Positions 5,013 to 57,610 of a DNA stretch of 64,000 bases are shown one piece after another. Where the stretch lies: assembly GCA_965207095.1 (NCBI GenBank), contig CBDBMC010000001.1, positions 4,625,575 to 4,689,574 on the forward strand, given 5' to 3'. Origin of the DNA: Candidatus Poribacteria bacterium (GTDB lineage Bacteria > Poribacteria > WGA-4E > PCPOR2b). The notes under the pieces were generated by a model. It did no database searches. It had not been told where the DNA came from and saw nothing but the letters and a program-made list of their open reading frames with translations. The translations under genes were made by a program, and so were the position numbers. Within the stretch, counting starts at the first letter, position 1. Each line of letters opens with the position of its first letter.

Positions 5013-5023
5013 AGGAATTAATT

Positions 5024-6316: not shown

Positions 6317-6365
6317 GAGGAGCAGTAGAGTTTCGAATGGTGTGTGATAGATAAGGACAGGCTCC

Positions 6366-7946
6366 ATGAACGTTGGCACCCACAAACAACTCTTTATCGA
6401 CGAACGCTTCTTTCAGACTCGCGAGGGTATCGAGTTGTGCATGAATCCACCTGTTCAGGATCCCACACCTGTGCTCATAGCGGACCAACCGTGGGAGGCA
6501 AAGGGCATAGGTGCTTACAGCACAGCCTTCCGCGAACCCGACGGCAGATTTCGCCTCTGGTATGATGCGCTTCTCGGCGTTGGGACGCCTCAAGAGAGTG
6601 CCCGCCGCCTGTGTTACGCCGAATCAGAGGATGGCCTCCACTGGGAGAAACCGTCGCTCGGTCTTGTCCCCTTTCGTGGTTCCACTGCAAATAACATCGT
6701 TGCTCCTCTCCTTGAACGCCAGAGCATGCAGGGAGCCACTGTGTATCGCGACGAACGCGCCTCGGCTGATGAACGTTACAAGTTGTGGAGCAAGTTCCGT
6801 CCTACTGACTCTCAGATCGCAGCGGATATTCGGAGCGGACTCTGGGCGATGCACTCGCCCGACGGTATTCACTGGCAGGCGTATCCCAACCAGCCTAACC
6901 CACCTAACCAGTCGTGTGATACTCAGAATATGTTTTTCTGGGACGATACCATCAAATGCTACGTCGGCTACACACGAGTTAGAGAGACCCAAAGCTCCGA
7001 AGAAGCTGCCCTCGCCGGCAAAGTCGCTTACCGGAGTATCGGCCGCATCACCTCGCCCGATTTCCGCAGTTGGTCGAGCACTCAGATTGTTCTGGAGGCA
7101 GATACAGAGGATTTAGCTATCCCCGTGCCTTCACAGTCTGATGACCAGCGTCCGAGCATCGACTACTACACCAGTTGTGCAATGAAATACGAAAGTGTCC
7201 AAGATGTGTATCTGATGTTTCCCTCAGTCTACTACCACTGGGGTGAGAATGGTTTTCCCGCAACCATGGATACACAGCTATTGACCAGCCGCGATGGCAT
7301 TAATTGGCGGCGTCAGGGCAACCGCCGTCCTTTCCTGCGACACGGGCTGGACGACGCGGTTTACAGCGGGATGCTTTTCGCCAATCCGTGGCTCATCCCT
7401 GTGGACGACGAACTGTGGCTGTACTATGCTGGCATGGCTCACAACCACGGTGCGGATCCTGACGATGTCGGGCGTTCCAGCAGCCTTTTTCGTGCACGCA
7501 TACGCCAGGATGGATTCGTCTCTGTGGATGCGGGTTTTGGCGGCGGTGAGTTCATCACGCCGGTGCTCCAGTTTGGCGGCAATCGCCTTGAGCTAAATCT
7601 CGATGGAAGTGCCGGCGGCTGGCTCCAAGTCGAAATTCAGAACGCGGATGGACAGCCGTTGCCCGGCTTTAGGCTCACAGAGGCAGATCCAATGGTGGGA
7701 AACGCGATCGGTAAAACTGTGACATGGCAAGGCAAAGACGACCTGAGCGAACTTGTTGGTCAAACGACCCGGCTGCGCTTCGTTCTGCGCGATATGAAAC
7801 TTTACGCCTTTCTTATAGTGAATTCGTACTCTCCAAAAATTAAGAAACCGTACTCAAGAATTATTACCCACGACCAAGATAGGGCTGCTCCACCGGCACC
7901 ACCTTCGCTTCAAGCATATTCACATTCGGCGGTAAGGTCGCCATAA
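6366..7946 (+). CDS. Hypothetical protein, putative glycoside-hydrolase-like beta-propeller fold
   Basis: 526 aa with an N-terminal KQLFIDERF motif. The family-like sequence ends around ...RLRFVLRDMKLYAF. The last roughly 48 codons overlap the convergent SDR gene and may be a read-through artefact. Confidence 0.4.
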   Translation: MNVGTHKQLFIDERFFQTREGIELCMNPPVQDPTPVLIADQPWEAKGIGAYSTAFREPDGRFRLWYDALLGVGTPQESARRLCYAESEDGLHWEKPSLGLVPFRGSTANNIVAPLLERQSMQGATVYRDERASADERYKLWSKFRPTDSQIAADIRSGLWAMHSPDGIHWQAYPNQPNPPNQSCDTQNMFFWDDTIKCYVGYTRVRETQSSEEAALAGKVAYRSIGRITSPDFRSWSSTQIVLEADTEDLAIPVPSQSDDQRPSIDYYTSCAMKYESVQDVYLMFPSVYYHWGENGFPATMDTQLLTSRDGINWRRQGNRRPFLRHGLDDAVYSGMLFANPWLIPVDDELWLYYAGMAHNHGADPDDVGRSSSLFRARIRQDGFVSVDAGFGGGEFITPVLQFGGNRLELNLDGSAGGWLQVEIQNADGQPLPGFRLTEADPMVGNAIGKTVTWQGKDDLSELVGQTTRLRFVLRDMKLYAFLIVNSYSPKIKKPYSRIITHDQDRAAPPAPPSLQAYSHSAVRSP

Positions 7947-8586
7947 GTACCGCCGCTTGAGCCAATTCCTCCACCTGCATCAGATCTGTTCGTTCATCGC
8001 CCTCTGGTAACTCCCTGACCTGTGTGGCACCCGGGTGCAGACAACTCGCAACGATTCCATGCGGACGTCCCTCCAAGGCTGTCACCTGCGTCAGTCCCCA
8101 AATACCAAATTTAGAGGCGCAGTAAGGTCCCGCTCCGGGTCGAACCCGCTGTGCGGATATACTACCGATGTTGATAATACGTCCGCCGCCCTGCTGCTTC
8201 ATAATCTGCATTGCTGCGCGCGTACACAGGAATGGCGCACGGAGATTGACCGAAAGCACGTTATCTAAGGCTTCCGTCGAAAGCTCGTCAAGCGGACCAC
8301 CATCAAACGCCCCCGAATTGTTGACCAAAATATCTAAGCGTTTGAACGCTTCCATCGTGTGCTCAAACAGCGCTTCGATTTGTGCCTCATCGGTGACATC
8401 GGTCGGTACGGCAAGCACCGTCGTGCCACCCTCCCTTAGTTCATCGGCTGTCTGATTCAATTCTTGAACACCCCGCGCAGCTAACACAAGGGTTGCTCCT
8501 TCGTCTGCCAAGCCGCGTGCGATGCCCTTGCCAATTCCTCTGTTACCTCCTGTGATGAGCGCAACCTTATCATCTAGCTTACCCAT
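7864..8586 (-). CDS. Short-chain dehydrogenase/reductase (SDR) family oxidoreductase
   Basis: 240 aa. TGGNRGIGKGIA cofactor-binding motif, the NNSG motif, and a catalytic YxxxK (YCASK). Confidence 0.85.
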   Translation of the reverse strand: MGKLDDKVALITGGNRGIGKGIARGLADEGATLVLAARGVQELNQTADELREGGTTVLAVPTDVTDEAQIEALFEHTMEAFKRLDILVNNSGAFDGGPLDELSTEALDNVLSVNLRAPFLCTRAAMQIMKQQGGGRIINIGSISAQRVRPGAGPYCASKFGIWGLTQVTALEGRPHGIVASCLHPGATQVRELPEGDERTDLMQVEELAQAAVLMATLPPNVNMLEAKVVPVEQPYLGRG

Positions 8587-8630: not shown

Positions 8631-8775
8631 GTAGATCTCAGAATTAATGAAACACTCCAAATTGGTAGGCGCTGTTTCCAACTGCGCCGTTTCAACTCAA
8701 CCAACGGTGTGTATGCGGTGCGGTTAGAAACCGCACCTACCGGGGAGCGAAAGTGTCTCTTTATTTTTAGAATTC
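8631..8775 (+). mobile_element. MITE-like element, family 1, copy A
   Basis: About 145 bp. Imperfect terminal inverted repeats TAGAATTAATGAAACAC ... GTGTCTCTTTATTTTTAGAATTC. Flanked by the direct repeat CATTATA (8624-8630 and 8776-8782). Contains two inverted copies of the 25-nt module GYGCRGTTGGAAACMGCRCCTACC. Near-identical copies at 11392-11511 (inverted) and 19991-20084. Confidence 0.7.
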
Positions 8776-19990: not shown

Positions 19991-20084
19991 AGTAGATCTT
20001 AGAATTAATGAGACATGCCAAATCGGTACGGTTAGAAACGGCACCTACCGGACGACGAAAGTGTCTATTTATTCTTAGAATTCA
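19991..20084 (+). mobile_element. MITE-like element, family 1, copy C (shortened)
   Basis: Keeps both termini (TAGAATTAATGAGACA ... GTGTCTATTTATTCTTAGAATTCA) and one GGTACGGTTAGAAACGGCACCTACCGG module. Lies in the divergent promoter region between the racemase-family gene and the Sel1 gene. Confidence 0.65.
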
Positions 20085-26008: not shown

Positions 26009-27039
26009 AGATTATGTCGGCTTTTATGGTACGGATTGTATTGGTCTGCCTGCTCGTCGAGCTTGCTACTTCCAGCCTACAGGTAGACGCTGTTGACGAA
26101 ATAGATGAGGAATCGTTCTTCACCCCCAGCTATTTAAGCTACGACGACATCTATCGAGATTTCACGACAAAGAAGATGTGTAAGCGGTGTCACCCGGCAA
26201 TATGGCGCGAGTGGGAGCGATCGATGCACGCGAAAGCGTGGGAGGATCCGATCTACCAAGAAGCGGCAAGTAAGGTTCCAGATCGGGAGAAGACGTGCGA
26301 TCCATGTCATGCGCCCGAACCGATTCTTATCACGGGCATCGGCAAGATGCCGACGCTGCGAGCAGAAGATCGAGAGTACGGTGTCTCTTGCATCGTCTGC
26401 CATATCGACGCGCACGGCGCGATGCACGGTCCTCATAAGAGCACCAATCCGATGTATCATGCAAACGTGACTTCCGAAGCTCACGCCAAGCCGACTGAAC
26501 TGTGCGCTACCTGCCACGGTCAACCGAGTGTGCCGGAACACAACCAGGTTGATAGCTTTAGAAATAGCCCCGCTGCAGAAAAAGGGTTGAATTGTGCCAG
26601 CTGCCATATGCCTGCTGTCAAACGGACGTTAAGCGTCCACACCTACGAGACGGTTACCGTTCGGCGGCACACGTGGGCGGGCAGTCGTAGTGTGAGTAAA
26701 CTCAAGAGTGCTGCAAACCTGAAAATCGTCCGTGAGGAGGGCAAAGCAACCGTTCGTCTGACCAATAATGCGGGACATCTCCTTCCGGGTGAAGCCTTGC
26801 GAGCGATTATCCTTGATGTGAGAATCTCCGATGCCGGTGGGATAGTGATTCGCCATGAGCAAATTTTCATTTCGGAGGAATCGGATAAACCTGAACACAG
26901 TCGGATACACCCCGGCGAAACACGGGAATTTGTGTACACATTTAATGATACGGAGAAGATTGAAGCAAAGCTGCGTTATCGTCTAACACCTGCGACACCA
27001 GAAACCGACTGGGTCACGATGGCAGAGGCAAATCAATAG
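26005..27039 (+). CDS. Secreted pentaheme c-type cytochrome
   Basis: Signal peptide plus five CxxCH motifs (CKRCH, CDPCH, CIVCH, CATCH, CASCH), and a roughly 130-aa C-terminal beta-rich domain. Its start overlaps the hemY stop (ATGA). Confidence 0.75.
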   Translation: MKIMSAFMVRIVLVCLLVELATSSLQVDAVDEIDEESFFTPSYLSYDDIYRDFTTKKMCKRCHPAIWREWERSMHAKAWEDPIYQEAASKVPDREKTCDPCHAPEPILITGIGKMPTLRAEDREYGVSCIVCHIDAHGAMHGPHKSTNPMYHANVTSEAHAKPTELCATCHGQPSVPEHNQVDSFRNSPAAEKGLNCASCHMPAVKRTLSVHTYETVTVRRHTWAGSRSVSKLKSAANLKIVREEGKATVRLTNNAGHLLPGEALRAIILDVRISDAGGIVIRHEQIFISEESDKPEHSRIHPGETREFVYTFNDTEKIEAKLRYRLTPATPETDWVTMAEANQ

Positions 27040-27436
27040 GCTTATCATCGCTTCATGTCATACAAATATACTAACTTAGGTTGTTAGAGAATATCGAGGT
27101 CGAGCTGCTATACGCGACGCCCACTAAAAACAGCCAATAAACTGAGCGCCAAACTGTAGGGATCGGGTGCACTTAATCCGATGGGCGAGGGAACCTCGCT
27201 CCTACGATTGGGTATGTGTTTGTGCATTACCGACACATGTCGCCCCGCTGGGGCTTTTGTTACTAGGGGAGTCGCCCGTCTATAAACATGCCGCCCCTCT
27301 GGGGCTATGATGGCGCATGATAAATTGAAGTGTTAAGTTTCACAGTTCTCGTTCAACCCAACCTACGGGCTGTCAAATGTCAACACGCCGTAGCAGCTTA
27401 GGTTATACTAACAATCACAGGAGGTAAACCGACAAG

Positions 27437-27568
27437 ATGAGACTTTCAGAACGTCCCGTTCGACGTAGAGGTTCATGGAAGCGTGTTATAGGGTATGTTA
27501 TTTTGCTAGCAATAATTTTAGTAGTGATGTGGAAGATGTCAGCGATTGTCCGTTGGCTCCCCGTCTAA
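27437..27568 (+). CDS. Candidate small membrane protein (43 aa)
   Basis: ATG preceded by AGGAGGT at a 12-nt spacing. It encodes MRLSERPVRRRGSWKRVIGYVILLAIILVVMWKMSAIVRWLPV, a positively charged N-terminus followed by one TM helix. It is below the ORF-track length cutoff. Confidence 0.3.
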   Translation: MRLSERPVRRRGSWKRVIGYVILLAIILVVMWKMSAIVRWLPV

Positions 27569-27664
27569 CTGTTATGGCGGATTCACCCGATGAAGGTGGA
27601 TCCAAATCCAGACCATTCGTGAAACCCACCTGAATCACAATTTTAACACTAAGGATATATTACT

Positions 27665-29020
27665 ATGCTGAAACTAAAGAATAGATTAGCTTTTACAACC
27701 CTTATCACCCTTTGCAGTGTTATCGCTCTCGTTTGCGCGCAAACCGCTTCTGCCCAAGATAAACTCGTTATCATATCACCACACTGGGAAGGGATCGAAA
27801 CAGAGTTTGATACCGCGTTTAAGGCGTGGTACGTTAAAGAGACGAGCCGGGAAGTCACTGTAGATTGGCTAGATCAGGGCGGATCCTCTTCTGACTTCCG
27901 GTTCATTGAATCAGAATTCAAGCGGCTGCCCGAAGGTATTGGGATAGATCTCTTTTTCGGGGGCGGGACCGACAATTACCTCAAGCTCGCTAATAAGGGG
28001 TTGCTGGCTCCCTACAAACTGCCGGACGCGCATCTGGCACGGATCCCGAAAGAAATTTTTGGAATCCCTGTCTACGATCCAGAATACCGCTGGTACGGCG
28101 CGGCATTGTCAACTTTTGGGATCATGTATAATGAGCAGTTGCGTGCACTTTTTAACCTACCCGAGATTCAGACGTGGAACGATCTCACGCACCCGAAACT
28201 GATTAACCGTGTCGGTGCAGCAGATCCCCGTGAAAGTGGAAGTGCACATATGATGTACGAACTTATCCTACAAGGCTACGGGTGGGAGAAAGGGTTCGAG
28301 CTAATTACGCAGCTCGGCGCGAATGTGAGGGGCTTTTCGGCGGGGTCGAATGCAATTCCCCGAGATGTCGTTGCAGGGCAGGTAATCTACGGCATGGCAA
28401 TTGACTTTTATGCCTACGGGCAGATCGCTGTCATCGGAGCAGACAAGATTAAATATGTTGTGCCGCCTGATGCTGCTGTCGTCAGCCCTGATTCGATTGC
28501 TATCCTTAAGGGTGCCCCCAACATGGCGGTTGCACAGAAATTCCTTGATTTCGTTCTCTCAGATCAAGCCCAAAAACTGTGGGTGTTACGCGACACAGAT
28601 CCCGAGGGACCGAAGTGGAAAGGTGGGTTGAACCGGAGCAGCGTTGTTCCAGCACTGTATCATGAACTTGGGGATCGCAGCGTGGCTGCCAATCCGTTTG
28701 AGTTAGATCTGAACCCTATAGACTACGACGCGGTAAAAGGTGGGATACGGTGGGACATCGTGGGGGATCTCATTGGTGCACTTGTCATTGAGCCACACAA
28801 GGATCTGGTCAGCACATGGAAAGCTATTAACAAGAGCAAAGATCCGGAGAAACGCGCTGCCGCGATTCAGATTTTGGGTCAGGTTCCAATAACGGAAGCG
28901 GAAGCGCTGGAACTGTCTCAGGGGAGTTGGCAAGCACCGGATTTCCGAAACCAGAAGCTGAAGGAATGGAGAGCGTTTGCCAAAGAGAAGTTCAAGGAGG
29001 CGAAAAAAGCGGCGAAGTGA
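27665..29020 (+). CDS. ABC-transporter periplasmic solute-binding protein (family 1, iron/polyamine type), orphan
   Basis: 451 aa. Signal peptide MLKLKNRLAFTTLITLCSVIALVCAQTASA and two-lobe SBP architecture. No permease or ATPase gene is adjacent. Confidence 0.7.
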   Translation: MLKLKNRLAFTTLITLCSVIALVCAQTASAQDKLVIISPHWEGIETEFDTAFKAWYVKETSREVTVDWLDQGGSSSDFRFIESEFKRLPEGIGIDLFFGGGTDNYLKLANKGLLAPYKLPDAHLARIPKEIFGIPVYDPEYRWYGAALSTFGIMYNEQLRALFNLPEIQTWNDLTHPKLINRVGAADPRESGSAHMMYELILQGYGWEKGFELITQLGANVRGFSAGSNAIPRDVVAGQVIYGMAIDFYAYGQIAVIGADKIKYVVPPDAAVVSPDSIAILKGAPNMAVAQKFLDFVLSDQAQKLWVLRDTDPEGPKWKGGLNRSSVVPALYHELGDRSVAANPFELDLNPIDYDAVKGGIRWDIVGDLIGALVIEPHKDLVSTWKAINKSKDPEKRAAAIQILGQVPITEAEALELSQGSWQAPDFRNQKLKEWRAFAKEKFKEAKKAAK

Positions 29021-29301
29021 CGAAGGTATACCGACGTTTCTAGAGCGTTTTGACATTAATGTGGGGTGTGGTCGCAATTCGCCGATAAAATTCTAATCAT
29101 AGCACCAACCTCAACTTACTCAACAGGTTGGGAGACCCAACCCCTACGAATTCAACTCTGTGTTTCTAGGATGTCTGTTGTGCGCTGCCGGTTGTGAAAT
29201 ATGAAACGACCTAACAGAATCTAACACTTTTTCAAGAATCAAGGCGTCTAGTCGTTTTTTACGTGTCGCACCTCTGGGACTTTGGTGGTACATTTATCCC
29301 C

Positions 29302-30381
29302 TCAGGCCTCCCAAAGCAGATTGATCGCACTTGCCTTAATAATAAAATAACACACCGTCCCCTCCGCAAGTCCAAGCTGCTCACGGGCATCGCTCGTAAC
29401 CTCCACCGACAGCAGATGCCCCTCGATATCGACCGATAGCATCACACGCCCCGCTTGAACGGCAACCACCCGGATTGTCCCACGCAAAATATTCCGTGCA
29501 CTCATCCGTAGATCCGGATCCATCGCAACGATGATATCCCGTGCCCTGATGGCAATCGGCATCGTTGAACCGGGTTCTGTTTCCGTATACGACACCATCA
29601 GTCTCTGTTCTCCCAGTGCCAACTCCGTCACACCGCGCTCCTCCGACGCAACCACCACCGGTAAAGCGAGGATGTTCTCCACGCCCGTCATCTGAGCAAC
29701 AGGCAACGCTGCGGGAGAAGTCAATAGTTGGTGAGGTTCTCCACGCGCTGTAACCTGACCTTCGGAGAGTAAGAACGCTTCGTCTGCGAGTGCCATCACC
29801 TCTGAGATGGAATGGGTGACGTAGAGGATAGGGATGTCAAATGCCCCCTTGATGTGATAGAGGTAGGGCAGGATGCGGTTTTTCAAACCGGTATCCAGAG
29901 ATGTAAGCGGTTCGTCCATTAATAGCAGGCGTGGCGACATTCCCAAAGCGCGCGCAATAGCGACCCGCTGCCGTTGACCGCCGGAGAGTTGACTTGGATA
30001 CCGATCCAACAATTCCCCGATTTCAAGGATATCGATAATTGTATCCGTGTCAATCTGTGTTCCACTGTCGAGTCGCCGAGAACGACCGTAGGAGATATTT
30101 TGTCGAACCTTCAGGTGCGGAAAAAGATACCCTTCTTGAAAGACATATCCAAAATGACGTTTTTCCGGTGGTAGGCTCTTTTTCTGTTGGGAGGAATACA
30201 ACGTTTGATCGGACAACAGGAGTTCTCCCTCGTCGGGATGTAGGATGCCACTGATACAATTGAGCAGTGTACTTTTTCCGCTTCCCGACGGTCCCAGAAA
30301 TGCCGTTACTTTCTCGGTGATGGTGTGATCAATCTCAAGCTGAAAATTGCCAAGCTGCTTGCGAAAACTGAGCTTTAACAT
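29302..30381 (-). CDS. modC: Molybdate ABC transporter ATP-binding protein with C-terminal TOBE/MOP domain
   Basis: 359 aa. Walker A GPSGSGKST, ABC signature LSGGQRQR, Walker B LLLMDEP. The C-terminal roughly 120 aa resemble a TOBE domain. Confidence 0.85.
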   Translation of the reverse strand: MLKLSFRKQLGNFQLEIDHTITEKVTAFLGPSGSGKSTLLNCISGILHPDEGELLLSDQTLYSSQQKKSLPPEKRHFGYVFQEGYLFPHLKVRQNISYGRSRRLDSGTQIDTDTIIDILEIGELLDRYPSQLSGGQRQRVAIARALGMSPRLLLMDEPLTSLDTGLKNRILPYLYHIKGAFDIPILYVTHSISEVMALADEAFLLSEGQVTARGEPHQLLTSPAALPVAQMTGVENILALPVVVASEERGVTELALGEQRLMVSYTETEPGSTMPIAIRARDIIVAMDPDLRMSARNILRGTIRVVAVQAGRVMLSVDIEGHLLSVEVTSDAREQLGLAEGTVCYFIIKASAINLLWEA

Positions 30382-30483
30382 GGGCCGTAATCCTTAACAT
30401 TCATGTAAAGAAATCGTGCCGCAGAAACCGAGTTTTTTCTTAATAACCCGGTTTCTCTTTGTGCTTTGCGCTTTCTTTTGTAA

Positions 30484-30952
30484 CCTAAGTTGCTAGTTAG
30501 CCTGTATGCCGTCTTTCCACATTCGCCAACGATACACATGTCGAAAATACCCGGAGTGTTGCATAAGGTGCTAGGCTCAATGAGCCAAGAATTGACGGAT
30601 AACCCACTGGGTATTTGGGACTTGGGTGTATGGGTGATATCCACATTCTATAAACATGTCGCCCCGCTGGGGCTAAAAAACGGGGAAAGTCCTCAAACTA
30701 AAGACATTGCGCTCCGCATGAAGATTAATTTATTAATTGGGTAATTTCCGAGCGATGTCCGGTGCGGTTGGAAACCGCACCTACCGGGTCTGGGGGAAAT
30801 ATAGAATTACCCGTTTAATTTCTTAAAACCCATCTGGAGCGCAGGCATTGACCGCATCGCCGTTCTATAGACATATCGCTCCTCCGGAGCGAAAGATAGA
30901 ATCCCTCAATCTTAACGACAAACCGATGGATGCTCAACACTAGCAACTTGCG
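30484..30952 (+). mobile_element. MITE-like element, family 2, copy a (composite, 469 bp) inserted between modB and modC
   Basis: Terminal inverted repeats CCTAAGTTGCTAG ... CTAGCAACTTGCG. Internal modules include the ACATGTCGCCCCGCTGGGGCT hairpin, the GGTGCGGTTGGAAACCGCACCTACCGG hairpin, and a roughly 175-bp block (30706-30880) nearly identical to 57209-57385. Confidence 0.75.
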
Positions 30953-31003
30953 TTTTGATATGAGCGGGCCCTAAAATGCAACAGCGGATTGGGTGGAGCT
31001 ACT

Positions 31004-31669
31004 TCATCTCTTGATATACAACCGTTCCGCTACCCACAGTGTCGCAAAAGCGATTAAGGTAGACAGAAACACCAGACGATATGCACTTAGATCCTGACCA
31101 ACTTGAACAAAGTTATAGATTGCCAAAGGCAATGTCTGCGTTTTTCCCGGAATATTTCCCGCCACCATCATCGTCGCCCCGAATTCGCCGAGACTCCGAG
31201 AAAATCCCATGATTGCTCCCCCGATAATCCCACGATACGACAGGGGCAGGGTAACGGTAAAAAACACCTTCAATGGTGATGCACCGAGCGTCCTTGCGGC
31301 ATTCTCCAGTTGTGGGTTCACCGTCTCTATCGCTGTAACGACACCGCGTACCAACAGCGGAAACGACAGCACAGAGATTGCCAGCACTACTGCCAGCCAT
31401 GAAAAGACTATTTCGAGGCCGAAAAGACGGAAGAGCAGTCCACCGATTGGACCACGCTTGCTGAGGAGGATCAGAAGAAAAAAACCGCTGACAACTGGTG
31501 GCAAAACCATCGGTAGCATAACAACGGTATTGAGGAGCGATTTGCCGGGGAATGAGAACTTGGCGAGTAGCCAACCGGTTAGGAGTCCCGGCGGCAGGAT
31601 GAGAAGTAGACTCAACGAGGCAGCTTTGATAGATAGAACTAACGCGCTGATTTCCGCTGCTGTTAACAT
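31004..31669 (-). CDS. modB: Molybdate ABC transporter permease
   Basis: 221 aa. ABC permease EAA-like loop region. Position and strand are consistent with a modA-modB-modC operon. Confidence 0.85.
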   Translation of the reverse strand: MLTAAEISALVLSIKAASLSLLLILPPGLLTGWLLAKFSFPGKSLLNTVVMLPMVLPPVVSGFFLLILLSKRGPIGGLLFRLFGLEIVFSWLAVVLAISVLSFPLLVRGVVTAIETVNPQLENAARTLGASPLKVFFTVTLPLSYRGIIGGAIMGFSRSLGEFGATMMVAGNIPGKTQTLPLAIYNFVQVGQDLSAYRLVFLSTLIAFATLWVAERLYIKR

Positions 31670-32445
31670 TATTTCACCACAGAGAAACCGTGTTTTTCAA
31701 AGATTGATGCAGCTTCGGGAGCTTGTAGGTACTGCAAGAACGCTTGGGCGAAAACTTTATGTCCCGTGTTTCGGAGTACCGCTGCGGGATACACAATTGG
31801 AGAATGGCTCGAACTAGGAAACTGATAGATAATGCTGGTCTTCTTACTGATCGCTGCGTCTGTTTGATAGACAACCCCAACATCGACCTCACCAGATTCA
31901 ACATACGCCAGCGTAGCTCGAACATCTGCACTTGGAATCAGCTTCGACTGTATGGTGGTCCAGACTCCCAAGTGGGTCAAAGCCTCTCTCCCATAGATAC
32001 CAGCGGGGACTGAATTCGGTTCACCGATAGCGATACGTCGGATAGCATTTTGGGCGAGCAGCTCCACGTTAGTCATAGTAAGTGGGCTATTGATGGGCAC
32101 AACCAACACCAACCGGTTCTTTAGGATCGCTCTACGCGAGTCCTCATAAAGCAGTCCCTTCCCTTGTAACGCGTCCATATGCTTGGGACTGGCAGAAATA
32201 AACACATCGGCTGGTGCACCTTTTTCGATTTGGCGCTGTAGGGTTGAAGAACCGGCAAAATTACAATATACCTTGACATTCTGCACTGTGCCAAAACGTT
32301 GGCTGACCTCTGTGAGCGCGTCTGTCAAGCTCGTCGCGCCAAAGATGACCAACTCCTCGCTTGAGCATCCGATGAACAGACATGCAAAACTCAGAAGAAT
32401 AAGAAGACATGGTTTCATCAATTGCAGGTAACCTAGAGATAGCAA
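31669..32445 (-). CDS. modA: Molybdate-binding periplasmic protein (lipoprotein-type signal)
   Basis: 258 aa. Lipobox LFIGC. ModA-family motifs FGATSLTDAL and ADVFISAS. The true start is possibly the internal Met (MKPCLLIL) at 32418. Confidence 0.8.
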   Translation of the reverse strand: MLSLGYLQLMKPCLLILLSFACLFIGCSSEELVIFGATSLTDALTEVSQRFGTVQNVKVYCNFAGSSTLQRQIEKGAPADVFISASPKHMDALQGKGLLYEDSRRAILKNRLVLVVPINSPLTMTNVELLAQNAIRRIAIGEPNSVPAGIYGREALTHLGVWTTIQSKLIPSADVRATLAYVESGEVDVGVVYQTDAAISKKTSIIYQFPSSSHSPIVYPAAVLRNTGHKVFAQAFLQYLQAPEAASIFEKHGFSVVK

Positions 32446-32746
32446 AATTTACGAAGATTAAGTTTGCTAAACGACGACAGGAATTTTCTCGATTTGTTGT
32501 GTATTAATCTAACACAAGTTGCTAGGGCGTGTTGACATTTGTAAAGCTATTTGCAATCGTAGGGACGAGGTTACCTCGCCCATTGAACAATACAGGTGAG
32601 CCATCCCAAACCGTACAGGTTGAATTGGTTGTAGATTGTCCGGATTCATCGGGATGCTCCCCGATAGATCGGGACAGGCGGAACGGCATAGGTCGAGATT
32701 CACATCTCGACGCTGAAACGTCGATTTTGGAAAATCGACCTACAGC

Positions 32747-32872
32747 AAGCCCGAAATCGGCTCTGACGTGTGAACAAAGGGTTGGGAGACCCAACCCCTA
32801 CGGAGAATCATGCGTCTGCACACCCTCTTGATTGTCTGGTTACAATGAGATGTCAACAGAGCCTAGTTAGCC
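32747..32872 (+). repeat. Conserved roughly 125-bp intergenic block, paralogous to 42555-42680
   Basis: AAGCCCGAAATCGGCTCTGACGTGTGAACAAAGGGTTGGGAGACCCAACCCCTACGG ... CCTAGTTAG, containing the hairpin GGTTGGGAGACCCAACC. The same hairpin also occurs at 29126-29148. Confidence 0.65.
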
Positions 32873-33250
32873 CGTAGGTCGCCTTTCCTCATTCGCCACT
32901 AATTAGACTAACTAAAGTAACGATACACATGTCGAAAATACCCGGAATGTTGCATAAGGTGCTAGGCTCAATGAGCCAAGAATTGACGGATAACCCACTG
33001 GGTATTTGGGGCTTGGGTGTATGGGTGCTAGCCACATTCTATAAACGTGTCGCCCCGTTGGGGCTAAAAAATGTGAACAAGTTCTCAAGCTATACACGTA
33101 GCACTCCTCTGGAGCGCAGGGATTGACCTCATCGCCGTTCTATAGACATATCGCTCCGCCCCGATGAATCGGGATTCAAAACTGGAGCGAAAGGGAGATT
33201 CCTCAATCTTAACGAAAGACCGATGAATTTTCAACACTAGCAGCTTACGC
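32862..33250 (+). mobile_element. MITE-like element, family 2, copy b (389 bp)
   Basis: Termini CCTAGTTAGCC ... CACTAGCAGCTTACGC. Its internal content parallels copy a, including the small spurious ORF 32929-33126. Confidence 0.7.
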
Positions 33251-33650
33251 TAATCTAGTGAATATCGTTGGGTTTCACTGTATCTGTCTATCCGTACACG
33301 TTGAAAAAAGTCATAATGTATTTATGTGAGAAATATAGATCCGCCTTCAACCGTTTAACCCAACGTACGTGTTATACATGTTGCTCCTCATGAACATTAA
33401 AAAAACAGTTCGGCAATTTGCTATTGGCACCAGCGCGGTTGGAAACCGCGCCTACCGTGTGTTTCAAGGAAAATCGAGATTGCCGATTTAAATACTTAAA
33501 CTTCATCTGGAGCGAAAAGTTCTCGGACCACATATTGAAGTAGGACGACAGGCTTTATACAACTTCGCTTTTTGTATTGCTTAACTTGCAATATTATGCT
33601 ATCTTGCTTGAAATGACCGCCATAACTGAAAGCTCTACGGAGGACTTGAC

Positions 33651-34442
33651 ATGACCAACCCAAACAGAAATAGCACTCCGATCTCAGAAGCAGAAATTGA
33701 GCAATATCATCGTGACGGCTACCTGCTCGTTTCTGGGTTGATTCCTGAGGACATCGCTGCAAAAGCGGAGGCTGCGATGTGGCGATGCGTGGGAATTGAT
33801 TCCGATCATCCACCGTCGTCTTGGGAGGAGGTCCAAGGAGGGATCTGCTTATACAACAGCGGGGATCTGGTCGATTGCTTCACCCCGGAATGCCTTGCCG
33901 CTGCGGCGCAATTGACCGGTGAGGATCCAGCTACATTTAGCAAGCTGCATCGGCATCCGAAAACCTATTGTGCACCGGACTTCCTCGCAGCGCAGGAAGC
34001 AAAGGCAGATGTTTCCAAGTTCTTCAGATGGGACTGTGCTTACACCATCAATATCTATCCAACCTTGGATGAGTGGGAGAGTCCAACGATTACGACGGGC
34101 GGACACCTAGACCACTCCCTTGAGGAACACTATCACAAGACGTTCCCACCGGTCTTTCGCATCGGTGCGCTGATTTACCTGAACGACATTGGGCAGAATG
34201 GCGGTGGAACGTTTGTCTGGCCCGGATCTCATCACGCGTTAGAGCGTGAGGCTCGAAAAAATCCAACTCGTTACGAGTACCGAACCGTGCTGAACGCAGA
34301 CCTTCCCGATCTCGATCTCGGTGATCCTGTTGGCATGCCCCTTCATCGCGGCGATATACTATTCTTGCACAATCTGTGCATCCATTCGGGGAGTAAGAAT
34401 GTGAGCAATCAACCGCGATTTGCGCTGAATATGAAATGGTAG
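33651..34442 (+). CDS. Phytanoyl-CoA dioxygenase (PhyH) family protein
   Basis: 263 aa. Motif QYHRDGYLLVSGLI, and a metal-binding His in HNLCIHSGSKN near the C-terminus. This is the second PhyH paralog in the window. Confidence 0.7.
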   Translation: MTNPNRNSTPISEAEIEQYHRDGYLLVSGLIPEDIAAKAEAAMWRCVGIDSDHPPSSWEEVQGGICLYNSGDLVDCFTPECLAAAAQLTGEDPATFSKLHRHPKTYCAPDFLAAQEAKADVSKFFRWDCAYTINIYPTLDEWESPTITTGGHLDHSLEEHYHKTFPPVFRIGALIYLNDIGQNGGGTFVWPGSHHALEREARKNPTRYEYRTVLNADLPDLDLGDPVGMPLHRGDILFLHNLCIHSGSKNVSNQPRFALNMKW

Positions 34443-35673: not shown

Positions 35674-36047
35674 TCAGTGCTCCTTTTATAGGCAATAGAA
35701 TGTTTCAGTTGTTATTTTATTTACTTCAAGAGATTTTAGGGGTACTCTCTTGATAATAATAATAGCGAATTTATGCTGTATTGTCAATCGGTTTCTGGAC
35801 TTCATTTGGTCTAACGCGCTATGAGTTAATGTTTGACCGTTCCTCAACTCAATTGTCATGCTCCATCTCCGTTGCCTTTCTTGAACAAAGATCTCAAATA
35901 TTGACCAGTAAAGCCACATCAAGCTAAACGTATGAAAAAAGAAAACAGGTATTTTTTTTCTACACTTTGCCCTTGATACTTAACACCTGTTATGGTAAAA
36001 TAAAATTTGTTACTTCATTATTGAGGGCGCTGTGATCTATAGTAATC

Positions 36048-36324
36048 CAAGTTGCTAGTTAGTCTATAGTCCGAGTTTCCATACTCGACACTCAGTTAGA
36101 AATAACCAGAGTGATACACATGTCGCCCCGCTGGGGCTTGGAGTTGTAGGAATGTGCTTTTCTATATACATGTCGCCCCGCTGGGGCTAAAAAACGGGGC
36201 AAGTTCTGGAGCTATACACATAACACTCCTCCCCGATAAGAGCGGGATTCAAAACTGGAGCGACAGGTTGGACAAATCAACTATAACAACCAACCAATAG
36301 ATTTTCAACGACTAGCAACTTACG
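36048..36324 (+). mobile_element. MITE-like element, family 2, copy c (277 bp) with 10-bp target-site duplication
   Basis: Termini CAAGTTGCTAGTT ... ACTAGCAACTTACG, flanked by the direct repeats TATAGTAATC (36038-36047) and TATAGTAATC (36326-36335). Contains two ACATGTCGCCCCGCTGGGGCT hairpins. Confidence 0.75.
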
Positions 36325-36390
36325 TTATAGTAATCTAAGCGATTGAATTATAGTCATGAAACAGTATATCACCAGAAAAGGAAATAACGC

Positions 36391-38124
36391 ATGGCAACTC
36401 AAGAAGCACAATGGACAAAATTGGCGGATTTGAGCGACGTTCCTGTTGGAGAAGCCAAGGCAGTGCAGATAGGGGAAGGACGGAGCATCGCGCTGTTCCA
36501 CGTTGACGGTAAACTCTATGCAACCGATAATCAATGCCCCCACATGGGATATCCGCTGACCCGGGGCCGTGTTCGGCACGGAATCCTTACGTGCGATTGG
36601 CACGAGCGGAGTTTCGACCTTGACGGCGGCGGTTGCTTTAATGTCGAGTGCGATGACCTACAGACCTTCCCCGCCGAAGTACGAGACGGCGAAATCTGGG
36701 TGCAGCTCGGTGATTGGACCTACAAACGGAAGGCGGAGCATCTCAGTCTGCTCTGGGAGGGACTTCTAAGTGGAGATCGCTGGACGATGTCCAAGGCGAT
36801 TGCCCTACTCCTCAAAGGAGGCGTAGCGGAAGTAGAGATTGTGGAGTTGATCCTACAACATCTTGGCAGACACATTGCTAGCTCGCACGGATCGGAAGCC
36901 GGTTGGGATATTGCTCGACTGATGAATGGACTTGCCGTAGGACGACGCTACAAAGACGCAGATCGCCTGATAGCGATGACGACTGCGGCAAGTGCGTCCT
37001 CCGGTGGCGCCGCAGAACGTCTCGAGGTTGTGCCGTTACCGGAGCCGGTGGCTTGGGAGAATATCGAGCCGTGGGTGCGCAGCTTTTCACGCGATGGACA
37101 TTCTGGACGGATCGAACGTTGTCTGTTCACCGCCTATACACTCGGCGATGCTGATAAAATTCTGCCGCTGCTGTTTGAATGTACAGTTGAGCCACATTTT
37201 CTTGGCTTCTCGGACAACCTTATTTCGCTTGGTTATCTCTCCGAAGCGGTTGACGAGTTCGGCTGGAAGAAAGCCTATGAGCTGGTCTTCAATCTCGGCT
37301 CTATGCTGGTCGGTCGTGGGCGTGGTGAACCTCAGCGGTTCCGTCGAGACGCGATCGGGATCATGAGAGAAAAACTCGGTGAATTGGAGGGGGCAGAAAA
37401 AACATCAGGTAATTATGACGAAGAGGCATTCGTGAACGCACTGTCAAGCGTAGATATTCAAAGGTCGTTCGACGCTGTCGGGGGTGCTCTGAAAGGTGGC
37501 GTTCCAATGGACGCACTCATTTCAACGTTGGTAATACTCGCCGCTGACCGGATGGCACGCACACCGGTCAACGTGGACGCCGGTTGGGAGTGCTTGACAA
37601 CGGAACTTAACCTCGCTGCTTCACTTCGCACGGTGCAACGCATCGCTGGTGATGATGCTGCGGCGAAAGGCATCTTCCACTCAGCGTGGCTTACTTTCGA
37701 TAACCGTTGGCTCAACATTCCGTCACGCACACTGACTGCACCACCGGTAGAGGAGGGATTCAACGCCTGCGACGAGGAGGAAGGCATTCAGCAGATAACT
37801 AACGCTATCGAAACTCTCAACGTGCAGGCAATCGGTGGACAGGTGCTGGGGTATCTCAATGCTGGATATTCTAGTGAAACCTTGCTCCATGCGCTCGGAA
37901 GAGCCATCCTTTGGGATGATACGGGCATGGAAATACTCCCCACACTCCGCACGGTTCTCGACGAATGGAACAATTGCGCGGGACATCCTGCTCGCGACCA
38001 ACTTATCGTTGCACTTGCGCGCTACGCCACCGATATCCGCACGAACAAGGACAGTGAATCCGCCACAACCACGGCGATGCGCTTTGCGGAAGGCAGGACC
38101 ACGGTCGAGATCTTTGACGATTAA
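36391..38124 (+). CDS. Rieske [2Fe-2S] domain fusion protein, paralog 1 (N-terminal Rieske plus roughly 470-aa uncharacterised domain)
   Basis: 577 aa. Rieske motif CPHMGYPL...x17...CDWH in the first 100 aa. The remaining sequence is unrecognised but conserved with paralog 2 (for example LGADRMARTP and WLNIxxxxLxAP). Confidence 0.8.
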   Translation: MATQEAQWTKLADLSDVPVGEAKAVQIGEGRSIALFHVDGKLYATDNQCPHMGYPLTRGRVRHGILTCDWHERSFDLDGGGCFNVECDDLQTFPAEVRDGEIWVQLGDWTYKRKAEHLSLLWEGLLSGDRWTMSKAIALLLKGGVAEVEIVELILQHLGRHIASSHGSEAGWDIARLMNGLAVGRRYKDADRLIAMTTAASASSGGAAERLEVVPLPEPVAWENIEPWVRSFSRDGHSGRIERCLFTAYTLGDADKILPLLFECTVEPHFLGFSDNLISLGYLSEAVDEFGWKKAYELVFNLGSMLVGRGRGEPQRFRRDAIGIMREKLGELEGAEKTSGNYDEEAFVNALSSVDIQRSFDAVGGALKGGVPMDALISTLVILAADRMARTPVNVDAGWECLTTELNLAASLRTVQRIAGDDAAAKGIFHSAWLTFDNRWLNIPSRTLTAPPVEEGFNACDEEEGIQQITNAIETLNVQAIGGQVLGYLNAGYSSETLLHALGRAILWDDTGMEILPTLRTVLDEWNNCAGHPARDQLIVALARYATDIRTNKDSESATTTAMRFAEGRTTVEIFDD

Positions 38125-38223: not shown

Positions 38224-39972
38224 ATGTTAAGCACATCATCTAACTTCGTCAAAGTCGCAACACTGGACGAACTCGCGGAAGGGAAGCCGAGAGCTATTAA
38301 GGCTGAGGGGCAGAGCATCGCCCTGTTTAAGCACAACGGAGATATTTATGCCACTGATAATCAATGTCCCCACATGGGTTATCCACTAACGAGAGGTCGC
38401 GTCCGAGGCGGTGTTCTCACGTGTGACTGGCACGGATGGAGCTACGACATGCGGGGTGGTGGCTGTTTTACCGGCGGTTGCGATGATCTAGCGACGTTCC
38501 CGGTCGAAATTCGTGAGAACGACATCTATATTGATATTGCTGGTGGTGGCAACAAGCGGGATGATGCCCACTTCCTTCTGCTCCAAGAAGGACTGCTATT
38601 TGGAGACAATTGGACACTGTCGAAAGCTGTCGCAATTATACTCGCCAGGGGCGTTTCCGAAAGTGATGTCCTGAATCGATTGGTGCGGCACGCAGGTCGA
38701 CATTTTGTGACCGAGCTTGACGCGAGAGAGGGCGGATGGCAACTGGCTAATCTGGTAAACGGCGTGAAGGTTGCCAGCCAATATGAACCGGAGGATCGAC
38801 TTATCCCACTCATGATGGCAGCATCAGGCGCATCGGGACGGGCAGGTGACCGACCGGCTGTTGCCCCCTTGCCCGGCGATATTACATGGGAGAAATTAGA
38901 GCGATGGATTCGCGTGTTCTCGGCAGACCGAGAATGGGAAGGTATAGAAAAATGCCTCATCACCGCCCGACGGCTCGGAGAGCATGACGATAAAATTATC
39001 CCGTTAGCTTATGAATGTATTGTTGAGCCGTTCTTCTTGGGACATGGTGATAGCTTGCTCCATATCGGGTATCTCGCAGAGTTGCTTGAACAGTTCGGTT
39101 GGGAGGTGTCCGAAGAACTGGTGTGTGGTCTCACTGCGAAGATACTTGGTCGGGGGCGTGGTGCGCCGGACGAAATCCGGCGCGAGGCGATCGGGAAGCT
39201 GGAGTCGCTGGAGGATTTTGTAGCAGATATAGCTGCGAATCCACCCAATCAATCATCTGATTTTAACGAGGATGCATTTGCAGCCGGGTTGGTAAGCGGC
39301 GATCTCGACGACACCTTTGATACAATCACCGATGCACTAAAGAGCGGTGTTGGAGTAAATCGAATCGTTCAAACAATGGTGCTTCTGGGTGCAGACCGGA
39401 TGGCACGCACACCCGCGAGCATGAGTCCAGGCTGGTGGGAGTTGGGTCAGGAAATCACTCTTGCCTCGTCCGTTCGCACAGCGTTACGATTTGGTGGTTT
39501 TCAGGTTGCCGCCAAGGCGCTCTACCATGTAGCGTGGGAATTCTTCAGCAACCGGTGGCTTAACATTCGGCAAATGCCCCTAAGCGCGCCGAGAAGCACG
39601 ACCCCTTCGGCTGCACCAGACGAAAAAGCGGGGATTGCGGATGTCATCAACACTATTGAAACGGTGCAGATCCAGGAGGTCGGGCGGATAACGCGACAAT
39701 ACCTAAACAGCGACTTCTCCGGCGACCGGTTACTGTCCGAATTAGGGCAGTGCATCCTCAGGGATGATAACGGTTGGGGTATCCTCAATACTTTACGGGC
39801 AGCTTTTGACGAATGGAAACTGTGCGAAGACCATCCGGGTCGGAATCAGTTGCTTGTTGGACTGGCGCGTTGGACGACCGACGAACGCAAAAACAGCAAC
39901 AGCGATTCTGCCGCAAAGACAGCGCTACGATTCGCGAAAGGTGAGACAGCGGTTGACCTGTATGAACAGTAG
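38224..39972 (+). CDS. Rieske [2Fe-2S] domain fusion protein, paralog 2
   Basis: 582 aa. Same architecture (CPHMGYPL...CDWH plus the long C-terminal domain). Good GGAGG RBS. Collinear with paralog 1 over its full length. Confidence 0.8.
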   Translation: MLSTSSNFVKVATLDELAEGKPRAIKAEGQSIALFKHNGDIYATDNQCPHMGYPLTRGRVRGGVLTCDWHGWSYDMRGGGCFTGGCDDLATFPVEIRENDIYIDIAGGGNKRDDAHFLLLQEGLLFGDNWTLSKAVAIILARGVSESDVLNRLVRHAGRHFVTELDAREGGWQLANLVNGVKVASQYEPEDRLIPLMMAASGASGRAGDRPAVAPLPGDITWEKLERWIRVFSADREWEGIEKCLITARRLGEHDDKIIPLAYECIVEPFFLGHGDSLLHIGYLAELLEQFGWEVSEELVCGLTAKILGRGRGAPDEIRREAIGKLESLEDFVADIAANPPNQSSDFNEDAFAAGLVSGDLDDTFDTITDALKSGVGVNRIVQTMVLLGADRMARTPASMSPGWWELGQEITLASSVRTALRFGGFQVAAKALYHVAWEFFSNRWLNIRQMPLSAPRSTTPSAAPDEKAGIADVINTIETVQIQEVGRITRQYLNSDFSGDRLLSELGQCILRDDNGWGILNTLRAAFDEWKLCEDHPGRNQLLVGLARWTTDERKNSNSDSAAKTALRFAKGETAVDLYEQ

Positions 39973-42554: not shown

Positions 42555-42680
42555 AAAGCCCGAAATGGTCTCTGACGTGCGAACAAAGGGTTGGGAAACC
42601 CAACCCCTACGAAGGATTATGCGTTTGTGCTCCCTCTTGATGGTCTGGTTGCGATGAAAGATCAACAGAACCTAGTTAGT
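42555..42680 (+). repeat. Conserved roughly 125-bp intergenic block, paralogous to 32747-32872
   Basis: Same block including the hairpin GGTTGGGAAACCCAACC and the terminal CCTAGTTAG. Sits in the divergent region between the ADH and the lactonase-like gene. Confidence 0.65.
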
Positions 42681-53455: not shown

Positions 53456-54470
53456 GCCAGATGATGAGAAATCATCAGCACATCAACGGCTTGAAGCCGA
53501 GGGACAAACACCGGAAACAGAGACATTAGGGCAACTGCGACAACTCGCCGAGGGCGGTGATCCAAGATAACCTTACTGGATGTATCAAAATGGCATCCCT
53601 CATAATGATGCAGAAGTACATTCAAGATGTTGAGAGCACCATTAATTTAGAAGGTCACAGAAACCTAACATGGGTCCCGAAGATATAGTGGTAGAGAAAG
53701 TTGTTGCATTACTTTCGAAAAGCAGTTATCTGCTCAGAATGACCTCGGCTGGCTGCACCAAAATGGTCGAGGAGTCCCCCAAGACGATGTGAAGGCAGTC
53801 GAATGGTATAGAAGAGCTGCTGAAGGTGATTATGCCATAGCCCAAGATAACTTAGGTTGGATGTATCAACATGGCAGAGGCGTCCCTCAAGATGATGTGG
53901 AGGCAGTCAAATGGTATCGAAAAGCTGCCGAAGGTGGCTCTCTTGCAAAAGCCCAAGACAACTTAGGCTGGATGTATCAGCACGGCAGAGGTGTTCCGCA
54001 AAGTGATGTGGAAGCAATTAAGTGGTATTGTAAAGCCGCTGAAGGTGGCTATTCCGCAGCCCAAGATAATCTTGATTGGATATATCAAAATGGTAGGGGC
54101 GTTGAGTAGATCAAGTGTAATTTACGCTGGCCTACTCCCACTTCCGAATATCGACAAAATGCCCGGCGATCGCAGCGCCTGCAGCCATCTGTGGACTGAC
54201 GAGATGCGTACGTCCTCCCTTGCAATGAAAAGGTTGAAAGCGCCCAACAGAAAATTGATGGACTATCAAGACAACAACAGGAAATTCAAATAAAAAGGCA
54301 AAAACTCCAATTGAGGTTCAAATTGCTGTCTTAAAAGCTGAATGGAAAACTTACAAGACGAGATTAGCCAACTCAATGAGAAAGTTAAGAACTCAACGGG
54401 AGATAGGCCAAAGCCAAGAAAAAATTGAGGATTTGTCAGCGCGACGGTAATAAAATGGAATCGCAGGTCA
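53456..54470 (+). pseudogene. Decayed gene remnants: Sel1-repeat gene fragments and a coiled-coil fragment
   Basis: Sel1 units (NLGWMYQHGRGVPQDDVEAVKWYRKAAEGG) are spread over three frames with no intact start. The frame carrying 53789-54109 is open back to the stop at 53666, with no ATG. A separate short heptad-like fragment follows. Confidence 0.45.
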
Positions 54471-56936: not shown

Positions 56937-56941
56937 TCTAA

Positions 56942-57556
56942 CCTAAGTTGCTAATTAGCCTGTAGGTCGCGTTTCCGCAGTCGCCACGAATTAGACTCAC
57001 TGAAGTAAGGATACACATGTCGCCCCGCTGGGGCTTGGGTGTATGGGTGCTATCCACATTCTATAAACATGTCGCCCCGCTGGGGCTATAAGTCGGGCAA
57101 GATGCCCGACCTACAGGTATTGGGGTTTGACTTTTACTGCGTCGCACATAATTGGGGGGTGTGCATGTGTAGCAGTCTTAGTAGATTAACCGTATTGCTT
57201 GCATACACATTGCGCTCCGCATGAAGATTAATTTATTAATTGGGTAATTTCCGAGCGATGTCCGGTGCGGTTGGAAACCGCACCTACCGGGTCTGGGGGA
57301 AATATAGAATTACCCGTTTTATTTCTTAAAACTCATCTGGAGCGCAGGCATTGACCTTATCGCCGTTCTATAGACATATCGCTCCGCTGGAGCGCAGGTC
57401 TCTGTCGGATCATCAGGACTTTCGCGTGTTCGGCTTGCTGAAAGAACGTGAATCTAGTAGCAGTTTTGTTCGCTTATCGATATTTCCTGCGTAATCAGCT
57501 GCCTCCGCGATTCAAACAATAATGATGCACACCCCTCACATAATTAGCAACTTGCG
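56942..57556 (+). mobile_element. MITE-like element, family 2, copy d (615 bp composite)
   Basis: Termini CCTAAGTTGCTAATTAGCC ... TAATTAGCAACTTGCG, a roughly 17-bp inverted match. Contains two ACATGTCGCCCCGCTGGGGCT hairpins and the 175-bp block 57209-57385 shared with copy a. Confidence 0.75.
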
Positions 57557-57610
57557 TTATTACACGATAATCCAGAACCCGTACGAGTACCCAACAAAAC
57601 GAGGAAATTC

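Follow-up and report, generated by a model that had tools for sequence, protein, structure and literature searches.

What separates modB from modC in the molybdate uptake operon of a Candidatus Poribacteria bacterium, a member of a group of sponge symbionts? The operon lies in a stretch of 64,000 nucleotides (contig CBDBMC010000001.1 of assembly GCA_965207095.1, positions 4,625,575 to 4,689,574 of the forward strand), which we analyzed as a whole and refer to as the window. Its three genes, named by NCBIfam models, are as follows.

29302-30381, minus strand: modC, molybdate ABC transporter ATPase, 359 aa, intact (TIGR02142, 368.6 bits against a cut-off of 285, model positions 1-352 of 353)
31004-31669, minus strand: modB, permease (TIGR02141, 221.4 bits against a cut-off of 182.6)
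31669-32445, minus strand: modA, periplasmic molybdate-binding protein (TIGR01256, 200.9 bits against a cut-off of 62.5)

A preliminary description of this DNA had presented modA and modB as translationally contiguous and had placed modC some 620 bp beyond them. The first point is borne out by a 1-nt overlap, one base belonging both to the modA stop and to the modB start (TAATG), and the second by a spacer of 622 bp (30382-31003); the layout needs the correction that the whole operon lies on the minus strand. The explanation that we favor, with a probability of roughly 0.75, is that this spacer consists of nonautonomous mobile DNA, nested within an ancestral spacer of about 45 bp, which is selfish and tolerated by its host. 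The nest comprises at least two, and probably three, elements, the largest being a MITE (miniature inverted-repeat transposable element) of 471 bp with termini of the IS982 type.

A nested insertion between modB and modC

The 27 best genomic matches to ModB all derive from metagenome-assembled genomes (MAGs) of Poribacteria, at 64-95% amino-acid identity, and look-ups of the exact ModB and ModC proteins of the window returned no identical protein on record. For comparison, we used 21 related Poribacteria loci (cited by L numbers) that have modB next to modC and encode a ModC with 78-94% identity to that of the window. The roughly 620-bp spacer is shared by none of them: the modB-modC distance is 8-45 bp in 14 of the 21 (L001, L003, L004, L006, L007, L008, L010, L011, L012, and L201-L205) and 110-185 bp in the other seven. 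Given that the short spacers align with both flanks of the window spacer, ~577 bp of the latter is extra DNA. Specifically, BLAST comparison with L001 and L204 left window positions 30398-30969 unmatched, opposite just 3 bp in the relative. Judged from these alignments, the ancestral part of the window spacer amounts to only ~45 bp (30382-30391 plus 30969-31003), and everything between has been inserted. The parts that we distinguish are listed below in order of position, with TIR standing for terminal inverted repeat and REP for repetitive extragenic palindrome.

30382-30391, minus strand: ancestral spacer by the modC start, GGGCCGTAAT on the plus strand, aligning with the bases that immediately precede the modC ATG in L001, L004, L011, and L201-L204
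30392-30399, no strand: possible left target duplication of the small MITE, CCTTAACA, with 6/8 bases matching CCCTAAAA at 30969-30976
30400-30476, no strand: left and central part of the small palindromic MITE, hairpin GAAACCGAG...CCCGGTTTC, 76-79% identical over ~80 bp to the copies in L018, L019, and L020
30477-30482, no strand: left target-site duplication of the 471-bp MITE, TTTG-TA, one base shorter than the right copy
30483-30953, plus strand: IS982-type MITE ("family 2"), 471 bp, with TIRs ACCTAAGTTGCTAGT at 30483-30497 and ACTAGCAACTTGCGT at 30939-30953
30646-30676, plus strand: internal module 1, motif TTCTATAAACATGTCG followed by hairpin GCCCCGCTGGGGC; direct repeat D1
30717-30832, no strand: inner palindrome, 116 bp, in the loop of a hairpin GCGCTCC...GGAGCGC
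30760-30787, minus strand: REP-like unit, CCGGTAGGTGCGGTTTCCAACCGCACCG, 28 nt, at the tip of the inner palindrome, with GTAG preceding an 8-bp stem
30863-30894, plus strand: internal module 2, motif TTCTATAGACATATCG followed by hairpin CGCTCCTCCGGAGCG; direct repeat D1
30954-30960, no strand: right target-site duplication of the 471-bp MITE, TTTGATA, 7 bp
30954-30965, no strand: right terminus of the small palindromic MITE, TTTGATATGAGC, severed by the 471-bp insertion and aligned with L018, L019, and L020
30969-31003, minus strand: ancestral spacer by the modB stop, aligning with the 35-45 bp spacers of L001, L004, L008, L010, and L011

The outermost layer of the nest is a palindromic MITE of ~90 nt, bounded by TTCATGT.AAGAA and TTCTTTTGATATGAGC and lying ~10-18 bp upstream of the modC start, with further copies in more distant Poribacteria (L018 2070-2148, L019 2074-2153, and L020 1476-1557). 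Reconstructed as an uninterrupted 90-nt sequence, the window copy folds computationally into one long hairpin of -25.2 kcal/mol. Relatives carry a single CCTAAAA(C) where the window has the direct repeat CCTTAACA/CCCTAAAA, and this imperfect 8-bp repeat is only suggestive of a target duplication.

The evidence for nesting is more direct. In L019 and L020, the small MITE is uninterrupted, its right end reading CTTTCTTTTGATATGAGC, and deleting 30483-30953 together with one copy of the duplication from the window restores exactly this sequence. At the level of sequence, such an empty site is direct proof that the 471-bp element inserted into the right arm of the small MITE, and it also fixes the order of events, the small palindrome having come first and the 471-bp element second. 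The preliminary description had recognized a composite insertion and a family-2 element with terminal inverted repeats, both of which stand. Its extent for the element, 30484-30952, gives way to 30483-30953, which is the best model of the ends: the inverted-repeat arms measure 16 nt (30482-30497 and 30939-30954), and the 15-nt TIRs within them, with AC...GT ends, match at 13/15 positions. A model with 3-bp duplications and TAAC...GTTA ends was also considered and dropped, as AC...GT ends with TA-N(1-3)-TA duplications fit 35/63 TIR pairs perfectly and make the right junction exact. Nor is the spacer made up almost entirely of family 2, as had been stated, for the 471-bp element accounts for 76% of it and the unrelated ~90-nt MITE for most of the rest.

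Within the 471-bp element lies a third layer, the 116-bp inner palindrome. It is missing from an otherwise 91%-identical copy of the element at 32919-33249, present with its flanks at 57207-57394 (96.8% identity), and found as a 70%-identical copy at 33383-33514. Because the copy at 57207-57394 has the palindrome and its flanks at the same internal position, the palindrome was already aboard when the 471-bp element entered the mod operon. The REP-like unit at its apex (pattern GGTAGGTGCGGTTTC.AACCGCACC, also written CCGGTAGGTGCGGTTTC.AACCGCACCG) occurs four times in the window against 0 expected, at 8716-8743, 20024-20051, 30760-30787, and 57263-57290, all on the minus strand, and again in L007 (43-66 and 2872-2895), L010 (330-353), and L020 (1646-1669). 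It is thus conserved across Poribacteria lineages and embedded in differing larger repeats. The open reading frames (ORFs) beside the copies at 8716 and 20024 encode an SDR protein, a DUF6785 protein, an enolase-like protein, and a Sel1-repeat protein; among the tested ORFs beside REP-like copies, Pfam revealed no gene for a REP-associated tyrosine transposase (RAYT; Y1 transposase).

A dispersed repeat family with IS982-type ends

The terminus of the 471-bp element, TAACNTAAGTTGCTAGT, has 11 matches in the window with at most three mismatches, against 0.17 expected from shuffles, and 10 of these form five left/right pairs (27072-27405, 30481-30955, 32510-33252, 36043-36327, and 56939-57559). 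Perfect 7-bp duplications (TATACTA, TAATCTA, and TATAGTA) flank three of the pairs, the syntenic locus L201 lacks the window's 27063-27409 copy, and further family-2 copies occur in L007, L016, and L025. Between their AC...GT ends, the copies range from 281 bp (36043-36327, the shortest) to 739 bp, the mod copy reaching 471 bp on account of its internal modules. These modules share a 16-nt motif, TTCTATARACATRTCG, followed by a short G+C-rich hairpin of varying stem sequence. The motif is present eight times in the window against 0.06 expected (at 27278, 30646, 30863, 33037, 33138, 36160, 57059, and 57366), always within family-2 copies, and also in other Poribacteria, including distant ones (L010 5980-5994, L024 4816-4830, and L201 3659-3673).

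The element thus combines TIRs, a target duplication with an empty site, absence of coding capacity, dispersed copies, and small size (MITEs generally staying below ~300-600 bp), from which we class it as a MITE. Neither of the two ORFs that can be drawn in the spacer (84 and 89 aa) has a Pfam match. When metagenome contigs were scanned for the family-2 terminus, 120 loci were returned, many with elements of 100-240 bp bounded by it. Eight elements in these loci measure 914-1026 bp, have the 17-nt terminus at either end, and each contain one ORF of 217-294 aa; the two of these ORFs that were scanned scored 198 and 165 bits against NF033520, "IS982 family transposase" (cut-off 130), and both matched Pfam DDE_Tnp_1_3. 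Elements of the IS982 family have AC ends, and duplications of 3-9 bp are listed for them in ISfinder. Perfect duplications of the form TA-N(1-3)-TA, 5-7 bp long, flank 35/63 TIR pairs, including full-length insertion sequence (IS) copies in L085 and L199 as well as window copies. Because the same termini bound ISs that encode IS982-family transposases, we assign the 471-bp element to the IS982-type MITEs; the assignment refers to its ends, given that the interior has no homology to IS982 elements, and does not make it a proven deletion derivative.

Two further regularities were seen within the window. All five family-2 copies lie on the plus strand, whatever the direction of the neighboring genes, a bias that is not significant with n = 5, and three of the five fall within 6.2 kb around the mod locus. 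A shared orientation and clustering of this kind could reflect replication-strand bias or local hopping.

A permissive junction in related lineages

The preliminary description had marked the position as a hotspot for family-2 elements, a claim that the relatives do not support, as none of the 21 carries a family-2 element at the junction. Seven of them (L002, L009, and L206-L210) have another palindromic insert, which lies elsewhere in the spacer, immediately following the modB stop. This sister-lineage insert is ~65 bp long and reads GGGCAACC...GGGGCAGG...CCTGCCC. The spacer of L206-L210 measures 110 bp (2391-2500 in L206-L209), whereas in L002 (4667-4851) and L009 (4667-4826), where CCCGAT..ATCGGG hairpin modules have enlarged the insert, the spacer reaches 185 and 160 bp, respectively. 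A search for inverted repeats with a seed of 8 returned none in the L002 and L009 inserts, in which shorter palindromes are visible by eye. Nests are therefore building in parallel at the modB-modC junction of sister lineages. In the distant L024 (66% ModB identity), ~700 bp of hairpin modules lie between modB and modC (4661-5511), among them a motif hairpin whose loop holds a palindrome (5221-5347), the same architecture as at window positions 30700-30850.

Since unlike elements occupy the junction in the window, in L002, L009, and L206-L210, and in L024, we regard it as a permissive site that has been altered repeatedly, by various elements and across lineages, rather than as a hotspot for a single family. 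Other genes lie there as well. In L023-L027, a conserved ORF of 93-104 aa (e.g., L025 4809-5123), with a hydrophobic N-terminal segment and a Gly/Asp-rich C-terminal tail (GGFDGGGFE repeats), separates modB from modC, and in L013, a single MAG, the intervening ORF (4874-8089) encodes 1071 aa rich in Thr/Gly/Ser repeats. Nine Poribacteria loci (L014-L016, L018-L022, and others) have no modC within 4 kb of modB.

A broader scheme, which we put forward as speculation and think will probably prove wrong, is that the hairpin modules themselves (the TTCTATARACATRTCG-hairpin, the 116-bp palindrome, and the GTAG apex) make up a system of self-nesting repeats, spread throughout Poribacteria and aimed at hairpin loops, of the REP/RAYT type or resembling the palindrome-associated transposable elements (PATEs) of the IS200/IS605 type. 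Such a system would have colonized the modB-modC junction independently in the window, in L002/L009/L206, and in L024, with the IS982-type MITE as a mere carrier.

Consequences for modC and competing explanations

In the course of events that we propose, a palindromic MITE of ~90 nt inserted ~10-18 bp upstream of the modC start codon, and the 471-bp IS982-type MITE (AC...GT ends, 15-nt TIRs) then entered its right arm, duplicating TTTGATA and bringing along the 116-bp inner palindrome with its GTAG hairpin, already on board before the move. Mobilization would have occurred in trans, through a DDE transposase of the IS982 family whose gene would lie at another place in the genome. Transcripts starting at the modA promoter would probably still run through into modC, the intercistronic RNA being long and highly structured, and any change in the amount of ModC would arise through the structure or processing of this RNA rather than through a dedicated promoter or terminator. 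That the insert is both tolerated and read through in this manner strikes us as somewhat better than an even bet, and its effect on the host would then be close to neutral.

Several observations bear on this. The window ModC has 90-94% identity to its counterparts in close relatives, equals 12/13 of them in length, and begins with the same residues as its orthologues (MLKLSFRK). The ratio of nonsynonymous to synonymous substitution rates (dN/dS) is 0.063 in window pairs against 0.071 among relatives for modC, and 0.048 against 0.060 for modB. The insertion is most likely selfish and tolerated: modC has kept its own start region, its reading frame is intact, and purifying selection acts on it. 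The sense-strand RNA of the spacer has a predicted folding energy of -196 kcal/mol (z = -2.5 against shuffled controls), and it is more structured than shuffled sequence, as nested palindromes would lead one to expect. Where the preliminary description had envisaged that the insertion might stop read-through into modC or furnish a new promoter, a consensus scan of the sense strand detected no terminator-like site in the spacer, and the number of promoter-like sites in the region, 4, was at the chance level (3.6 +/- 1.7 in shuffles) for a sigma-70-like consensus that may not be that of Poribacteria. No convincing promoter or terminator is thus predicted in the insert.

Some findings sit less comfortably with the explanation that we favor. 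The repeat flanking the small MITE agrees at 6/8 positions only, and on the left of the 471-bp element the duplication lacks one base. As a test, dN/dS is weak here, since pairwise dS is ~0.6 compared with a divergence of 3-25% among family-2 copies, and relaxed selection may not have had time to leave a trace since the insertion. A tblastn search with two IS982 transposases found no IS982 transposase gene in the window, nor in the ~0.25 Mb of related loci L001-L080, so an autonomous partner in Poribacteria is presumed; likewise, the family-2 interior has no BLAST similarity beyond the TIR to the 120 terminus-sharing metagenome loci. A lenient scan of the sense strand brings out a weak, imperfect hairpin of -7.1 kcal/mol with U6 behind it (30716-30675), the C/G ratio is 1.3-1.7 in several 78-nt windows, and the 622-nt untranslated stretch could provoke Rho-dependent polarity.

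These last features would fit a polar insertion, in which Rho-dependent termination, the weak intrinsic terminator, or RNase cleavage of the hairpins would lower or abolish modC expression, with modC being dispensable or not yet decayed. The sense strand is C-rich and G-poor at 30808-30731 and 30691-30536, and in Correia and ERIC elements, MITE hairpins are known to be cut by RNase III or RNase E (PMC10969869). Yet modC is intact, retains the length and start seen in relatives, and shows no elevation of dN/dS; the standard scan has no terminator-like site; and the nesting and decayed duplications imply that the first insertion is not very recent, with modC still free of lesions. We consider a polar effect decidedly unlikely. 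Another proposition, that modC is uncoupled from modAB and expressed from a promoter of its own within the nested elements, could draw on the one promoter-like site of the sense strand, a 9/12 match within the inner palindrome (30826-30798; TTAAGA-17-TATATT), and on documented MITE-borne promoters, such as those of Correia elements (PMC10969869). Separate expression of modC would also be compatible with its function in the phylum, given the nine loci without a nearby modC and the genes that intervene in L013 and L023-L027. This proposition, too, appears unlikely, as such matches are no more frequent than in shuffled sequence, the candidate lies ~420 nt upstream of modC and follows a sigma-70-like consensus that may not apply in Poribacteria, and the five family-2 copies have no consistent orientation relative to neighboring genes.

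It is scarcely credible that there was no insertion at all, and that the spacer is either a native regulatory region, such as a molybdenum cofactor (Moco) riboswitch or a small gene, or an artefact of assembly across repeats. Assemblers can indeed be misled by repeats, and the two short ORFs could be taken for small genes. These have no Pfam match, however, and Rfam, with the Moco riboswitch family included, gave no match at E up to 1 within 26500-34000 on either strand. Moreover, the sequence is absent from relatives, target duplications mark both junctions, and the junction rebuilds a known element exactly, unlike a chimeric join. A nested, tolerated insertion of selfish DNA therefore remains our preferred account of the modB-modC spacer.

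Other repeats and genes around the mod locus

The region upstream of modA (32424-33568) is likewise a composite of repeats, with an intergenic distance of 1205 bp compared with 435 bp in the syntenic L201. It comprises the family-2 pair at 32510-33252, a repeat (32747-32870) with a match at 42556-42679, and the lone copy of the inner palindrome at 33383-33514, and it could affect the mod promoter. In the close relative L202 (1-1620), the position of modA is taken by an IS605 OrfB/TnpB-type gene (HTH_OrfB_IS605, OrfB_IS605, and Cas12f1-like_TNB domains) that adjoins a DDE_Tnp_1 insertion sequence, modB and modC remaining in place. On the other side of the operon, the P0004 lineage (L206-L209, 4294-5413) has an IS3-like element (ORFs with HTH_Tnp_1, HTH_21, and rve domains) between modC and the downstream solute-binding-protein gene, where the window has none. 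Two further repeats in the window are unrelated to the MITEs: the adjacent paralogous genes at 36391-38124 (Rieske domain) and 38224-39972 share a 69%-identical stretch (36475-36697 versus 38305-38527), and 53739-54103 contains an internal tandem repeat with a period of ~108 bp.

Comparison with known systems

Our literature searches found no description of MITEs in Poribacteria. The kind of event reported here is already known from other bacteria, and it leaves the understanding of MITE mechanism and of molybdate transport unchanged. What the locus offers is a stepwise nesting of MITEs, resolved to the base, in an essential-transport operon of an uncultivated sponge symbiont whose relatives have kept the empty sites, together with a tie between an abundant Poribacteria repeat and IS982-type transposition. 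Such nests enlarge intergenic regions and can confuse both operon prediction and assembly in Poribacteria MAGs, and the termini and modules defined herein can be used to annotate them.

REP elements and the bacterial interspersed mosaic elements (BIMEs) that they form are mobilized by RAYT transposases, and their hallmark is a short G+C-rich palindrome preceded by a conserved GTAG. Both features are seen in the apex unit at 30760-30787, which recurs in several Poribacteria lineages. It differs in that the tested ORFs include no RAYT gene, that there are four copies in 64 kb, and that the unit sits inside larger palindromes rather than standing alone, so that its likeness to REP is a resemblance only.

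Correia elements are ~100-155 bp long and generate a TA duplication. Those of Neisseria resemble the elements described here in being TIR-bounded MITEs; they are co-transcribed with their neighbors, as the mod insert probably is, their hairpin RNA being a potential RNase substrate and their DNA a potential carrier of promoters or integration host factor (IHF) sites (PMC10969869). Both Correia and ERIC elements exert effects through RNases (PMC10969869). The sequences are unrelated, and for the mod insert any promoter, IHF, or RNase site would be hypothetical.

With respect to the genomic setting, a parallel is provided by Chunjie, a MITE from Geobacter uraniireducens Rf4 (Chen et al. 2008, cited through PMC10969869), which lies within an ABC-transporter operon and, according to that citing account, does not disturb it. 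Both cases involve a MITE with TIRs and direct repeats in an ABC uptake operon (for phosphate in Geobacter, for molybdate here) whose genes are intact. On the same account, Chunjie is a single element of 235 bp, compared with two or three nested elements totaling ~577 bp in the window, and the families, hosts, and target duplications differ.

MITEs derived from IS982 have been described previously, namely MITECca01, related to ISCca4, in the Cardinium endosymbiont of Oedothorax gibbosus (PMC9769881). Like the 471-bp element, MITECca01 is nonautonomous, has IS982-type inverted repeats and no transposase, and is present in many copies in the repeat-rich genome of a host-associated bacterium. Its termini and interior are unrelated in sequence to those from Poribacteria. 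At ~240 bp, it keeps a short stretch of its parent IS, which is known, whereas the Poribacteria copies, of 281-739 bp, share only their termini with the IS982-type metagenome elements, are stuffed with secondary hairpin modules, and have a parent IS that was not found in the window or in L001-L080. For the nesting itself, a precedent exists in Streptococcus pneumoniae, where BOX, RUP, and SPRITE elements insert into one another (PMC10969869). The sequences and the phylum are different, and BOX is built from A, B, and C modules without IS982-type ends, but the two systems have in common that modular short repeats bunch together between genes and insert into each other.

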